This document shows positions 11,609 through 17,813 of a DNA stretch of 64,000 nt, in pieces. The position numbers were made by a program, and so were the translations under genes. The notes under the pieces are model-generated. The model worked only from the letters and a program-made list of their open reading frames with translations, was not told the DNA's origin and did no database searches. Source of the stretch: Candidatus Latescibacterota bacterium (GTDB lineage: Bacteria; Latescibacterota; UBA2968; GCA-2709665); contig OZ250150.1 in NCBI GenBank assembly GCA_965237675.1, positions 3,040,001-3,104,000 on the forward strand, in the 5' to 3' direction. The stretch's first letter is position 1. Each line of letters starts with the position of its first letter.

Positions 11609-12328
11609 AGGTAGAAGATCCTTTTTGGCCACAAAAAGCACAAAATGCACAGAAGGGATAGAAGCCAACCGGCGTGTGAAGAAACGCCTGCAGTCCGTAA
11701 GGAATATTGGCGTTATTCGTAGCTATTCAGCAGTTCACGCAATAAGCCTTTTTGTGTTTTTGTGCCTTTTGTGGCAATTGTTTTTACGCGGCAAACTGGT
11801 TGAGCGGGATAATAACCACAAAAAGCACAGAACGCACAGAAATTAAGGAGCTGAATGGCAGGTGTCGAATCGACTCGATTCTGTAGTTATCACGGTGTTT
11901 TTCTTGGCTATATAGCCAGTTACTGGTTAATTCTTTTTTTGTGTTTTTGTGCCTTTTGTGGCAATTGTTTTTACACGGCAAACTGGTTGAGTAGGACGAT
12001 AGCCACAAAAAGCACAGACGGCACAGAAATTAAGGAGCTGAATGGCAGGTGTAGAATCGACTCGATTCTGTAGTCAGTACGGTGTTTCTCTTGGCTATAC
12101 ACCCTGTAACTGATTGGTTCTTTTTGTGTTTTTGTGCCTTTTGTGGCAATTGTTTTTGCGCGGCAAACTGGCTAAGCGGGACAATAACCACAAAAAGCAC
12201 AGAAAGCACAGAAAGTGAACATCAGCGTACAAACGGTCAGAATTCGATCGCCCTACGTGCCAATATAGAGTGAGACAACTCCCCATCCGAGTTTAGTGTA
12301 GGTTTGAGGGCGGAGAGGAGAGCAAGAG

Positions 12329-12797
12329 ATGATGAGTATGGACAACGGCCGACAGGAGCAGGTGTCGGTAGCAGTCCCGGAGCGGAGCGAAGGGACTGCT
12401 ACCGAGGCGCCCCGCCCTGACCCGGAAGTGCCAGAGAAGGCGAAGCGCCGGCGGTTCACTGCGCGGTACAAGCTTCGGGTCCTCCAAGAGGCGGAGGCGT
12501 GTCGAGAGCCGGGTCAGCTCGGCGCATTGCTGCGACGAGAGGGGCTATACTCCTCGCACCTGGCACAATGGCGTCGCGCCCGGCGTGAAAGGATCGTTGA
12601 AGGCGCTTTCCAAGCAGCGCGGTCCCAAGGGCCGTCGTCGCGAACCGGTGGCCGTCGAGAACGAGCAGCTACGCAAAGAAAACGCTCGGTTGCGACGACG
12701 CCTGGAGCAGGCGCAGATGGTCCTTGAGATCCAAAAAAAAGCCTCGGAGATCCTGGGCATCCCCCTGAACCCGCCGCCGAGCGACGACGACGCATGA
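12329..12797 (+). pseudogene. IS3 OrfA (HTH plus leucine zipper), frameshift near 12588
   Basis: RRRFTARYKLRVL...LLRREGLYSSHLAQWRR continues in another frame as GSLKALSKQRGPK...LEIQKKASEILG. Confidence 0.8.
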
Positions 12798-14255: not shown

Positions 14256-15281
14256 TTTATAACCGATCAATTGGCCACAAAAAGCACAAAAGGCACCGAA
14301 AGTATAGAAGCCAAACGGCAGGTGCCGAAACAACGGGACTCAACATCCATTATCGGTGTCGGCGGTGGCCCATCATCAGTTTGGCCACAAAAAGCACAAA
14401 AGGTACAGAAATTAAATGGCTGAACAGCGGGTGTAGAATCGACTCCATTCTGTAGTCACTGCGGTGTTTTCCTAGGCTATACACCCTGTAACTGAATAGT
14501 TCCTTTTTGTGTTTTTGTGCCTTTTGTGGCCATTGCCTTTAAGCCGCGAACTGGCTGAACGGGAAAATAACCACAAAAAGCACAGAAGGCACAGAAATTA
14601 GAGAACTGAACGGCAGGTGTAGAACCGCCTCGATTCCCTAGCTAATACGGTGTTTTTCTAGGCCATTTGCCGGTTTTCGGGGTCGTTTCCTTTTGTGTTT
14701 TTGTGCCTTTTGTGGCCATTGATTTTATGCAGCAAACTGGTTCAGCGGGACAAAAAGCACAGAAGGCACAGAGGGTGCAGAATAGAAACGACATGTGTAG
14801 CAACGACTGCACTCGGTATCGACTATTGGTGTCATTCGCGGCTATTCAGCAGTTCACGGAATAGGCCTTTTTGCCTTTTGTGTTTTTGTGCCTTTTGTGG
14901 CCATTGTCTTTACACGGCAAACTGATTGAGCGGGACGACAACCACAAAAAGCACAGAAGGCACAGAAATTAAGGAGCTGAACGGCAGGTGTCGAATCGAC
15001 TCGATTCTGTAGTTATTACGCTGTTTTTCTTGGCTATACAGCCAGTAACTGGTTAATTCTTTTTTTTGTGTTTTTGTGCCTTTTGTGGCAATTGTTTTTA
15101 CGCGGCAAACTGGTTGAGCGGGATAATAACCACAAAAAGCACAGAACGCACAGAAGGTATAGAAGCTAAACGGCATGTGTAGAAACGACGGGATTCAGTA
15201 TCGACTATTGGTGTCATTCGTGGCTATTCATCCTTTCACAGAATAAGTATTTTTCTCTTGTGCCTTTTGTGGCAATCGATT

Positions 15282-17813
15282 CTATGCAGCAAACTGGTTC
15301 AAAGGTACGTAGTCTTTCACGTATTCGGGAACGAGGGTGCGGTATTTTTCCGGTACGGCCCCCAGGTCTTTCATTGAGAGAACCGGGCTCGTGGCCAGGT
15401 CGGTGAAGTGCCGGTTTTCGATGATGTGGCGGATCTGGTCGCTTGTGACGTACGCCTTGAAATAGGTCTTGATCGCGGGGATGGACTCGACCTCCTCGGG
15501 GGTGTAGTCGGCCACGAACTTCGCGAATTCCTCTTCCAGCATTTCGTCCCTGGATTTAAATCGCGGGATCAGCCCGAACACTTTCTCCAGAATCTCCCGC
15601 AGGGTGATGCGGCGGTCCACGGCCGCTGCTCGGCGCAGCTTTTCAAGGGTGTAGTACTCCTCGGGTCGGTCGAAGACCTCCTGGTTGACGTAGTCGATGA
15701 CCCGGTCCCAGTGACCGGCCTCCACGGCCTGGGCGATAGTGTCGTCCTTGCGCACGGCATCCTCGAATTTCTCGAAGAACATGCGGTCGATCTTCATCCC
15801 TTCCGAACCGATGGCCTCGACCTGGATCGAGGAGAGGATGTCCCTGCCCAGGTATTCGTAGGCGCCCGCGTCGGACCCGGGCTGTTCCCCGCCCCCTCTT
15901 TCATGGGCGTCTTTATAGACCACAGGCAAATTCAACACTTCGTCGTAGTTGAACTCGGTCTCGAAGTATTCGCAGCTGGCGAAGAAGTCGAACAGCTTGA
16001 ACGCGGTCTTATCGGGCTCGTCTACGCGTTCCGCCACGGCCGGATTGAGCAACTGCTCGAGGAAGTCGTGTTTCCGCGTGCCCCGCCCCTTGATCTGGAT
16101 GAAGTCGGTGGGGGAGAAGATGGGGCGGAACAGACCCAGATTCAGAATATCCGTGCAATCGTACCCGGTGGTCATCATGCCAACGGTCACACAGACCCGC
16201 GCTTTACATGTCCGATAGGAGGGGAGAAAGTTGCACGAGCCGAGCAGTTTATTGTTTGCAAAATTGATGGTTAGCTGCTGCGCGTGCGCAATCTGCGACG
16301 TCACCTGAACCGCAAAATCCGATTGATAGCGGTCAGGAAACATGACGTGGGCCATGGCGTTGAGGATCTGAGTCAATCTTGCCGCGTGGTTCTGGCTGAC
16401 TGCAAAGACGATGGACTTGCCGACTTCGCCGCTGACGGGGTCCCGCAGCGCATTCTCCAGGAAAGTCTTGCAGAAAAGCTGGTTGGTCGCTTCGGAATAG
16501 AAACGCTTCTCAAATTCACGCTGTTTGTAGGCCTCTTCCTGCTCTTCTCCCTCATCGTCCTTAAAAGAAACGACGAATCCCTGTTCCGAGAGCAAATCGG
16601 TCGTCACCTTCGTGCGTGCGTCCACAACCGTCGGATTGATCAGATAGCCATCTTTCACGCCGTCGAGCAGCGAGTACTTGAACGTGGGCTGCCCGCTCTC
16701 GCATCCAAACGTGCGGTAGGTATCCATCAGAAGCCGGCGTTCGGCGTCGCGCGGATCCCGCGTGGTGGGGTGCGTGTGGTCGAACCCCTTGAGGTAGTCG
16801 CGGGGGGTTGCGGTGAGGCCCAGCTTGTACCCCACGAAATAGTCGAATACGGACCGGGCATTGCCGCCGATGGACCGGTGCGCTTCGTCCGAGATGACGA
16901 GGTCGAAGTCGGTCGGTGAGAAAAGGGTCTGGTACTTGTTGTTGAACAGGAGCGATTGGACCGTGGTAACGACAATCTCCTCGGAGCGCCAGTCGTCGCG
17001 CCGCTCTTTGTAGACCACCGTCTGAAAGTCGGCCGAAAGCAGTGCAGCGAAGACCTTCCGTGCCTGCTCCTCGAGTTCCAGCCGGTCGACGAGGAACAGG
17101 ACGCGAGACGCGTTGCCGGAACGGAGAAAAAGCTTTATGACCGCGGCGGCGACAAGGGTCTTTCCCGTACCCGTGGCCATCTCGAACAGAAATCGGTCTC
17201 TGCCGTCTTTCACCGCCCGTTGCAGGGAGTGAACGGCTCTGAGTTGGTAATCACGGAGGAAGCGAAGGTTGTTGGCCTTGATGAAACCTGGGCGTTCGGT
17301 TTCGTTCTTCCACGCGGCTTCCGAGCGGTAATTCGGCCGCTGGGTGAGCACGATGTAGTCCTCGCCGACCCGCTCGTCAACCAGGCGCTGCGGGTTGGGC
17401 TGGACTCTGTTGTAGACGGTTACGGATTGCGGCGTCGGGAACGATGTGACAACGTACGGATTGCCTCGTTCGAGGTCCCAGAAGTAATGCAGGTTTCCGT
17501 TCGATAGGATAACGAAACGGCAGGCCTGCGAGCGGGCGTACTTTCGCGCCTGCTCCTTGCCCGCCAAGGGATCCTTGTCTTCCGACTTGGCCTCCAGGAC
17601 AATGAGGGGAAAACCTTTGCCGTCCAACAGCAGAAAATCGATACGACCAGACGTCCCCTCGAAATCGTCGCCCAATGCGTCGAGGTCCGCGTTTTTCAGG
17701 ACGACCTTGTGTTCGACGCGAATGTTGCCGGGCTTGCCTTCATCATCGAAGAAGCGCCACCCGGCCGCCTCGAGCATTTTATTGATCTTGATTCGCGCCG
17801 CTGCTTCATTCAT
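15282..17813 (-). CDS. hsdR: type I restriction endonuclease subunit R
   Basis: IDFLL..VLEAK nuclease motif, MATGTGKT, DEAHRS, TATP and QIKGRGTR. Confidence 0.93.
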   Translation of the reverse strand: MNEAAARIKINKMLEAAGWRFFDDEGKPGNIRVEHKVVLKNADLDALGDDFEGTSGRIDFLLLDGKGFPLIVLEAKSEDKDPLAGKEQARKYARSQACRFVILSNGNLHYFWDLERGNPYVVTSFPTPQSVTVYNRVQPNPQRLVDERVGEDYIVLTQRPNYRSEAAWKNETERPGFIKANNLRFLRDYQLRAVHSLQRAVKDGRDRFLFEMATGTGKTLVAAAVIKLFLRSGNASRVLFLVDRLELEEQARKVFAALLSADFQTVVYKERRDDWRSEEIVVTTVQSLLFNNKYQTLFSPTDFDLVISDEAHRSIGGNARSVFDYFVGYKLGLTATPRDYLKGFDHTHPTTRDPRDAERRLLMDTYRTFGCESGQPTFKYSLLDGVKDGYLINPTVVDARTKVTTDLLSEQGFVVSFKDDEGEEQEEAYKQREFEKRFYSEATNQLFCKTFLENALRDPVSGEVGKSIVFAVSQNHAARLTQILNAMAHVMFPDRYQSDFAVQVTSQIAHAQQLTINFANNKLLGSCNFLPSYRTCKARVCVTVGMMTTGYDCTDILNLGLFRPIFSPTDFIQIKGRGTRKHDFLEQLLNPAVAERVDEPDKTAFKLFDFFASCEYFETEFNYDEVLNLPVVYKDAHERGGGEQPGSDAGAYEYLGRDILSSIQVEAIGSEGMKIDRMFFEKFEDAVRKDDTIAQAVEAGHWDRVIDYVNQEVFDRPEEYYTLEKLRRAAAVDRRITLREILEKVFGLIPRFKSRDEMLEEEFAKFVADYTPEEVESIPAIKTYFKAYVTSDQIRHIIENRHFTDLATSPVLSMKDLGAVPEKYRTLVPEYVKDYVPLNQFAA

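Follow-up and report, generated by a model that had tools for sequence, protein, structure and literature searches.

How did a tandem array of hairpin-forming units, interleaved with copies of the last codons of hsdR, come to lie between the hsdR and hsdM genes of a bacterial restriction-modification (R-M) operon? This study addressed the question in a 64,000-nt stretch of Candidatus Latescibacterota bacterium DNA (contig OZ250150.1, positions 3,040,001 to 3,104,000; hereafter the window), in which hsdR, a 3.6-kb spacer, hsdM, and hsdS follow one another on the minus strand and constitute a type I R-M operon (Table 1). The array is best read as a cluster resembling bacterial interspersed mosaic elements (BIMEs) and miniature inverted-repeat transposable elements (MITEs) that fossilised the end of an old hsdR allele, and known processes account for most of it better than a new mobile system would. 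The genome to which the window belongs (5.6 Mb) is called G000 below, and related genomes carry numbers of their own (for example, G008 and G013).

The spacer holds nine full copies and one 5'-truncated copy of a non-coding element of approximately 145 nt (unit lengths 143-153 nt), which we call E. Each copy consists of a left arm, an interior of approximately 95 nt, and a right arm. The 26-nt arms are each composed of three direct 8-9-mers without internal complementarity, and the left and right arms are mutually inverted. Eighteen arm matches alternate in orientation along the array, and they are separated by turns by the interior and by a tail stretch of approximately 40 nt. TRF detected a period of 187 in 2.5 copies (88% matches) and a period of 186 in 4.3 copies (72% matches), and nhmmer recovered eight full units with E-values from 1e-36 to 1e-42. 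The sequence, TRF, and nhmmer thus bore out the original prediction of an array of ~187-bp hairpin units with arms and seven tails; the stop positions that it had listed were also correct (for example, taa at 15100-15098 and at 11786-11784). The array is interrupted twice, by a GxxExxY/PDDEXK_3 gene and by an rve-family insertion sequence (IS), the latter of which splits unit U6. To the left of E stands ...ATTG and to its right C(C/T)A(A/T)T(T/G), and both may belong to the inverted ends; no clear target duplication was found for E.

Seven linkers of approximately 40 nt each contain a copy of approximately 31 nt of the hsdR end, comprising eight sense codons, the stop codon, and four further bases. 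The distance from the stop to the next left arm is 9 nt in every linker, as it is at the native end, and all seven tails share one 5' junction, located after the motif (C/T)TAT(T/C). With the native end included, the tail copies number 8 against 9.5 elements; U5 and U9, the last units of the two sub-arrays, have no tail behind them. No unit is flanked by two identical tails.

A hairpin with the tail in its loop forms between the right arm of each unit and the left arm of its successor (-27.1 kcal/mol, z -4.0), and these arm-tail-arm hairpins fold well on both strands. An RNAalifold analysis of 20 elements from 7 genomes revealed that only the invariant arms pair (16 pairs), with zero compensatory changes and no evidence of a structured RNA in the interior. 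Rfam, searched at E<=1 over positions 11000-16000, returned only sub-threshold matches to miRNA-type hairpins, which were centred on the right arm-tail-left arm hairpins. A scan for promoters and terminators found 2 and 7 sites, respectively, compared with 2.2 and 5.0 in shuffled sequences, and thus no excess.

An hsdR allele other than the resident one seeded the array

The resident gene encodes a type I restriction subunit R in which the N-terminal nuclease region (HSDR_N), the superfamily 2 helicase motor (ResIII), and the conserved C-terminal region of HsdR are all present; it matched the EcoAI/FtnUII-type R model at 4e-64, with a score under the cut-off of that model. We searched for homologues with its C-terminal 255 residues as the query, and 120 were listed at 71-95% identity. 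Among those listed, 91 of 120 end in V[S/P]LNQFAA and most of the others are one residue off; the homologues come from many phyla, and the closest listed, P0001, is 95% identical over the queried region (residues 600-854). Because the ending ...DYV[S/P]LNQFAA* is conserved among homologues of many phyla, the comparison indicates that the hsdR end is ancestral and that the tails are genuine copies of it, as the original prediction had supposed. The converse derivation, of the hsdR C-terminus from element E, was ruled out by the same conservation.

The consensus of the seven tails encodes exactly VPLNQFAA* and differs from the resident hsdR end at 7 of 27 nt without a single amino-acid change. 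A script that counts single steps scored 6 of these 7 differences as synonymous (p 0.0007-0.0035). Measured against their own consensus, the tails show 16 unique changes, of which 9 are synonymous and 7 are non-synonymous (4, 3, and 9 at codon positions 1, 2, and 3); the latter yield I, F, F, L, S, V, and a change of stop to Q (T6, at 12156). Tail T3 has three synonymous changes, all of them resident-like, and shares the post-stop bases aatc with the resident end; because these features match the resident end, T3 is a chimera in which tail-type and resident-type sequence are joined. When T3 was removed, 6 of 13 changes were synonymous, which was not significant (p 0.08-0.18). The synonymous signal is therefore strong when the resident gene is compared with the tails' progenitor, and weak among the tails, where it fits neutral decay combined with one recombination with the resident end. 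The tails had originally been described as mostly synonymous copies whose stop was mostly kept, in a manner that neutral decay would not produce. The description stands for the comparison of the consensus with the resident end, but it does not extend to the differences among tails; as for neutral decay, one stop is lost (T6) and the synonymous excess is not significant without T3.

The drift of the tails from their consensus is 0.10 per site. At this drift, the resident end would be expected to show ~0.7 changes over ~6.7 synonymous sites, and 7 were observed; the probability of at least seven is 7e-6, or 5e-4 at a doubled rate. An hsdR allele other than the resident one is thus shown to be the source of the tail that seeded the array. 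Moreover, the syntenic flanking gene for a molybdopterin enzyme is 96% identical to its counterpart in G008 and 94% identical to that in G012, whereas hsdR and hsdM are only 86-87% and 85-87% identical to those of the same relatives (86-87% for hsdR/hsdM against G008). On the basis of the excess synonymous divergence and of R-M genes more diverged than the flanking gene, we infer that the array took its start next to one hsdR allele, which another allele later replaced. Sliding-window identities of hsdR with four orthologues revealed no clear mosaic boundary. The allele data, including the T3 chimera, support more than one allelic state and thus part of the original prediction, that the tails were ends of different alleles; they do not support a separate origin for each tail. 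In a scan of 53 genomes of the order, no hsdR end was found within 3 mismatches of the tail consensus, and the only matches were the tails of G000 and the MITE copies in G000 and G008 that are described below.

Relatives of element E and of the tails

DNA of the array matched 14 of 14 genomes of the same genus and, in a genus from a different family, 10 of 16; because the E family occurs in both, it is old. In the 5.6 Mb of G000, nhmmer found 19 same-strand matches to E, full or partial, with 9 of them in the array, and among 20 aligned copies the arms hardly vary. Two further interior classes exist, namely class C, which is dispersed and nested in a TTAA-flanked repeat, and class D, which occurs in other species. 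The TTAA-flanked repeat of approximately 260 nt is present in six near-identical copies (G000:C1 39014, 431903, 893113, 1961522, 2047595, and 4666975), each of which holds a single E-family arm, and a longer form holds a whole class-C element. None of the ten dispersed full-length E copies in G000 is flanked by duplicated ends of neighbouring genes; the original prediction had asked whether arrays at other loci carry the tail of their own neighbouring gene, and no such tail accompanies these ten copies.

Arrays of the family differ in size between genomes. At an orthologous locus, G004 (contig C79) has three tandem class-D units and G009 (contig C1) has two, and the internal junctions fall inside a right arm, the mark that unequal crossing-over between arms leaves. 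In G004, two units are identical, a sign that a unit was gained or lost recently. A linker on contig C35 of G004 had been considered as a copied 5' flank or as a relative of the tails; this candidate was dropped, as the sequence in common is a module from a different repeat family.

G000 contains a second array with an architecture like that at hsdR. At G000:C1:93124-93923, between two paralogous homocysteine S-methyltransferase genes, a 198-nt unit is repeated in 4.0 copies (96% matches). This unit comprises the final ~75 nt of the S-methyltransferase gene that lies upstream and a different hairpin element of approximately 125 nt with arms of 7-mers, and its junction lies in a shared ACATC. 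The stop is kept in the copies, and most of their differences from the real gene end are synonymous. This array is a young, plain tandem duplication. A genome-wide scan for open reading frame (ORF) ends copied downstream (frames of at least 600 nt) returned 27 candidates, of which 11 were inspected, three of them closely. These three proved to be the two arrays of this kind, at hsdR and at the S-methyltransferase locus, and a non-coding 93-nt repeat upstream of hsdR; the other inspected candidates were coding repeats or single weak copies.

Beyond these genomes, an exact scan for a tail with its stop, 9 nt, and a left arm gave one unrelated match in species-representative genomes and none in metagenomes, both sets possibly without the genome of the window. 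Pairs of tail cores 160-190 nt apart were found at 41 metagenome loci, all of which were unrelated tandem repeats on inspection. Such scans require exact matches and miss diverged arrays. A literature search on hsdR with MITEs or tandem repeats, on GxxExxY, and on PDDEXK_3 found no description of such an arrangement.

The arm-tail-arm hairpin also occurs away from hsdR. It is present at four G000 loci without hsdR, where the tails read VPLYQFAAK, VLLYQFAAK, VLLFRFAAK, and, in the fourth, a version with an indel; the stop is kept in none. These tails are carried by a composite repeat at approximately 135.8, 768.3, 2050.6, and 4710.7 kb of G000:C1, which was also found in G008, G010, G011, and G005. 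Copies are 248-492 nt long and have a palindromic end module of 42 nt, or of 140 nt at one locus, that is the same at both ends of a copy. Because 3 of the 4 G000 copies have clean 7-nt target duplications on either side, the composite is read as a MITE, which picked up the segment of class-A interior, right arm, tail, and left arm. Loops of the same kind were found in G008, G010, G011, G012, G005, and G002, and a matching hsdR was not found in four of these genomes (G002, G005, G010, and G011). Tail-like loops beside the same arms thus occur without a neighbouring hsdR, an observation that the original prediction had itself named as one that would refute its proposal of insertion at the hsdR 3' end. 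The changes in the dispersed tails are non-synonymous, and the reading frame and stop are lost, as expected for fossils.

GxxExxY genes elsewhere in the genus also adjoin short periodic repeats. We compared 24 PDDEXK_3 loci (L102-L127) from 13 genomes, which represent a few homologous groups and are not independent; periodic repeats lie on both flanks of 15 of the 24 genes, compared with 1.5% of 3000 random positions. By eye, at least five families of arms match up with five subfamilies of the gene, and the gene stands between perfect inverted arms in G013, G001, and G007. In G000, no inverted arm pairs 0.7-3 kb apart were found except around the GxxExxY gene. The hsdR-hsdM spacers of G008 and G012 contain a non-orthologous GxxExxY gene of another subfamily with another arm family (CATGGATnnACAGGAT), and G000 has at the orthologous site the subfamily with E arms. 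No GxxExxY gene was found in the 1.5 kb after the hsdR stop of G001 and G013, the rest of the G001 spacer not having been inspected. A stretch of approximately 150 nt behind hsdR is common to G008 and G001. The GxxExxY observation may matter more than the array itself, as a testable lead on the role of a widespread nuclease family.

How the array may have arisen

The account that we favour, with a confidence somewhat above even, is BIME-like amplification seeded from an older hsdR allele and followed by allele replacement. The array would be a BIME-like tandem cluster of the genus-wide, non-coding element E in the hsdR-hsdM spacer. A single duplication may have joined the 3' edge of E to codon -9 of hsdR, and the resulting unit would have comprised the hsdR tail (27 nt including the stop, plus 4 nt) and E. 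Unequal crossing-over and gene conversion between the near-invariant arms could then have multiplied and shuffled this unit, presumably with some exchange with dispersed E copies as well. The resident hsdR would have arrived later by allele replacement and would since have recombined with at least one tail, T3. The tails are no longer expressed ends and are decaying, and the segment running from an interior through right arm and tail to left arm was taken up by a MITE with 7-bp target duplications, which accounts for the tail hairpins at other loci and in other genomes. Any present role of the hairpins, for example in transcript processing or in insulation between hsdR and hsdM, is conjecture.

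The original prediction knew of no described system with this architecture, but the layout resembles BIME-2 arrays (PMC3333891). As described there, BIME-2 arrays are tandem copies of inverted repetitive extragenic palindromic (REP) sequences with alternating linkers, the linker sequence and copy number of which vary between strains; the mechanisms proposed for their amplification include cuts within the linker or some way off from the repeat; and a REP is an imperfect palindrome of 20-40 nt with 5' GTAG in Escherichia coli. The array shares with the BIME-2 and atypical BIMEs of E. coli (PMC3333891, PMC2817692) an extragenic position, alternating inverted short repeats, two linker types, tandem arrangement, and variable linkers. 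Copy number also varies, here for the E family (three units in G004 and two in G009). Unlike REPs, the E arms are not palindromes, they belong to an element of low copy number (19 full or partial E copies in G000, rather than hundreds), and no REP-flanked Y1 transposase (REP-associated tyrosine transposase, RAYT, or TnpAREP) exists for them; unlike in BIMEs, one linker type copies the last codons of the upstream gene. The right arm-tail-left arm hairpin of approximately 92 nt, with inverted repeats around a spacer and dispersed in several genomes, recalls the REP doublets forming hairpins (REPINs; PMC3116915, PMC3337134). Its dispersal, however, is accounted for by a larger MITE that carries it and makes 7-bp target duplications, and it was not found associated with a RAYT.

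MITEs are small, non-coding elements with terminal inverted repeats, with interior classes that share the same ends, and with nesting in other repeats. E is likewise small and non-coding (a conserved ORF was not formally sought) and has inverted ends, several interior classes, and nested copies; in contrast to MITEs, no clear target duplication was found for it, the search of G000 gave no autonomous IS sharing its ends, and MITEs do not usually form tandem arrays that include a captured gene end. Integrative elements accrete in tandem at the 3' ends of genes and tRNA genes, and duplicated att sites restore the gene end. The array is similar in that direct repeats of the 3' end of the target gene separate successive elements past an intact gene. 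It differs in that E is 145 nt long and has no integrase, in that the number of tails departs from the n+1 att sites expected for n elements, and in that tail copies also occur at loci without hsdR (in G000 and in G002, G005, G010, and G011). Integron attC sites are imperfect inverted repeats of 57-141 nt in cassette arrays or in clusters of attC sites lacking integron integrases (CALINs). The ~92-nt imperfect inverted-repeat sites that alternate with short variable segments, and the small gene inside the array, resemble such arrays, but the E interiors are 95 nt long and non-coding. For the integron integrase model TIGR02249, no ORF exceeded the 265-bit cut-off; the best one scored 111.7 + 103.7 bits and lies 1.7 Mb away.

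Several findings weigh against amplification from an older allele. No enzyme was identified; the three Y1-transposase genes (PF01797) in the genome have no arm 9-mers within 1.5 kb. Between classes A and B, identity of the interiors is 58-71%, whereas the tails are 78-100% alike, and the interior of U9 is 91% identical to that of a solitary copy (G000:C1:5015675-5015827), which also bears half a tail, but only 76% identical to those of U1 and U3. Because of this gap between classes and the kinship of U9, exchange between the array and dispersed copies, by arm conversion or movement, must be added to the account: the array needs further exchange or insertion from outside. The junction of the first duplication shows weak microhomology (CTA..G, read by eye), and the synonymous excess among the tails is nominally significant when T3 is kept (9 of 16, p 0.007-0.03). 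Furthermore, 4 of 14 genomes of the same genus have this hsdR at the syntenic site, and the tail array was found in none of them, so the history is not traceable there. No contig from the four sequencing runs compared with the region bridges the array, and the order of units rests on the assembly alone.

The last point raises the question of an assembly artefact from collapsed or expanded repeats, an explanation to which we attach almost no weight. The units differ from one another by 5-40%. In addition, pieces specific to single units (U3, U4, U5 with the GxxExxY gene, U7, and the hsdR end with U1) recur at 100% identity in contigs of runs X1, X3, and X2, of which X1 and X3 belong to one study and X2 to another, and their depth in X1 is that of single-copy DNA (39-55, against 48 in the flank). 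The concern about misassembly that the original prediction had raised is thereby answered for the pieces and not for their order. Separately, contigs of run X5, which bears another organism label, contain the joins 12242/13869 and 11658/15059 at 4-9x and with sides of 31-55 nt; they hint at a relative that lacks the IS and whose array is shorter or rearranged, but were too weak and were not used.

The original prediction had favoured targeted insertion, in which E elements enter serially at the hsdR 3' end, duplicating a target of approximately 31 nt or bringing a replacement end, so that each tail was once translated. We consider this an unlikely but still viable rival, although the two old interior classes, the presence of the outside-related U9 in the same array, the constant junction, a tail consensus equal to an intact end, and the nominal synonymous excess would all follow from it. 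In G012 and G013, the E left arm and part of the interior also lie 40-50 nt past the hsdR stop, behind an arm of another family, and G012 may have a second, decayed tail before another such arm (20/27, read by eye). The tail counts, on the other hand, do not fit, with tails missing after U5 and U9, and the second sub-array, past the GxxExxY gene, carries hsdR tails rather than the end of the GxxExxY gene. No tyrosine or serine recombinase is encoded nearby, where only IS transposases are; tails flanking a single unit are never identical; the synonymous excess is lost without T3; the ten dispersed copies have no duplicated gene ends; and the exact-pattern scans produced no other case in species-representative genomes or metagenomes. 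With a single junction, with tails away from hsdR as well, and with a plain tandem duplication of like architecture at the S-methyltransferase locus, repeated site-specific insertion was not shown.

A still less probable explanation is that the periodic-repeat arms, of E and of at least three other families, are the ends of undescribed small cassettes mobilised by GxxExxY (PD-(D/E)XK) nucleases and turning over in the hsdR-hsdM spacer, with the tails as repair scars or co-converted donor flanks. The periodic flanks of 15 of 24 genes, the tracking of subfamilies by arm families, the different subfamilies at the orthologous site in G000 and in G008 and G012, with none seen near the hsdR stop in G001 and G013, and the perfect inverted arms in three genomes agree with such cassettes, and the function of PDDEXK_3 is listed as unknown in PMC3424549. 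If true, this explanation would also account for the storage of allelic versions of the tail. Its weakness lies in the few homologous groups behind the 24 loci, in that a conserved flank alone would give the same co-variation, and in the G000 gene, which stands between a right arm and a left arm that are not the inverted ends of one element; cleavage or binding of the arms by the GxxExxY protein is itself putative. Selection on the tails for a function of their own, as ends of small ORFs or as hairpin-loop RNAs acting on the hsdR message, appears highly improbable. ORFs of 88 aa and 74 aa do terminate at the stops of T2 and T8, and the hairpins fold well on both strands. Against these stand the non-synonymous changes and the lost stop, an interior without conserved structure or covariation, the lack of an Rfam family match, the dispersed copies that lose frame and stop, and promoter- and terminator-like sites that are not in excess.

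If BIME-like amplification followed by allele replacement is correct, the locus records three events: the growth of palindromic repeat clusters by absorption of adjacent coding sequence into the repeat unit, the replacement of an R-M gene allele in a defence island with fossils of the old allele left behind, and the carriage of an hsdR fossil through a genus by a MITE. Such tails could be used for dating allele turnover at R-M loci. They also carry a warning, in that synonymous patterns in non-coding repeats are possible without selection on the repeats themselves.

The operon and its surroundings

The positions of the operon genes, the array units, the tails, and the interrupting genes are listed in Table 1.

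Table 1. Features of the R-M operon and of the hsdR-hsdM spacer, with positions in the window
Feature	Position	Strand	Evidence or remark
hsdR, type I restriction subunit R, 854 aa, ends VPLNQFAA*	15282..17846	-	ResIII 3.8e-37, HSDR_N
Native hsdR tail: last 8 codons, stop, 4 nt	15278..15308	-	Stretch copied in linkers
Unit U1, class A interior	15130..15272	-	nhmmer; left arm without third 9-mer
Linker, tail T1 (IPLNQFAA*)	15089..15129	-	Identical to T8
Unit U2, class B	14942..15088	-	nhmmer; interior 95% identical to U8
Linker, tail T2 (VPLNQFAV*)	14901..14941	-	
Unit U3, class A	14748..14900	-	nhmmer; right arm truncated into tail
Tail T3 (VPLNQFAA*)	14716..14747	-	28/34 to resident end; 5' part consensus-like, 3' part resident-like
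Unit U4, class B' (grouped with B)	14571..14715	-	Resembles element fragment 3' of hsdR in relative G013
Linker, tail T4 (FPFSQFAA*)	14530..14570	-	
Unit U5, class B	14385..14529	-	No tail behind it
Partial unit U5b, class A	14275..14384	-	E-value 2.1e-13, model positions 41-145; without left arm
GxxExxY / PDDEXK_3 gene	13875..14258	-	PF13366 9.1e-29; TIGR04256 4.2e-33; between a right arm and a left arm
IS in unit U6, two ORFs (second, rve integrase core)	IS 12243-13850; ORFs 12329..13807	+	
Unit U6, split by IS	left arm from 13862, right arm to near 12190	-	
Linker, tail T6 (VPLSQFAAQ)	12147..12189	-	Stop lost
Unit U7, class B	12003..12146	-	nhmmer
Linker, tail T7 (VLLNQFAV*)	11962..12002	-	
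Unit U8, class B	11816..11961	-	nhmmer
Linker, tail T8 (IPLNQFAA*)	11775..11815	-	
Unit U9, class A	11629..11774	-	nhmmer; no tail behind it
hsdM	9914..11608	-	N6_Mtase 3.9e-49; probable ATG at 11608; 3' end enters IS
Second IS at hsdM/hsdS junction, DUF772 transposase ORF 8211-9776	8134..9950	+	Domain search; comparison with G008
hsdS	7230..8075	-	Methylase_S 3.3e-16

Two IS insertions affect the operon. In G008, hsdM and hsdS are contiguous, with no IS between them; in the window, the reading frame of hsdM terminates within the IS at the hsdM/hsdS junction. The R-M operon is therefore probably no longer intact. A CBASS-like (cyclic oligonucleotide-based antiphage signalling system) pair lies at 2778-5416, in which a gene for an SMODS/DncV-like cyclase (3425-4366) adjoins a gene for a patatin-like phospholipase (4640-5416), and a gene for an IrrE/M78 peptidase is located at 499-1173. 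With the R-M operon and the CBASS-like genes nearby, the region looks like a defence island.

Upstream of hsdR (~18290-18500 and 17851-17930), there is a 93-nt tandem repeat in 2-3 copies, composed of modules from two other periodic arm families. An arm of one of these other families stops 5 nt ahead of the hsdR start, and a 91-aa ORF without a Pfam match (17940-18215) lies between the repeats.

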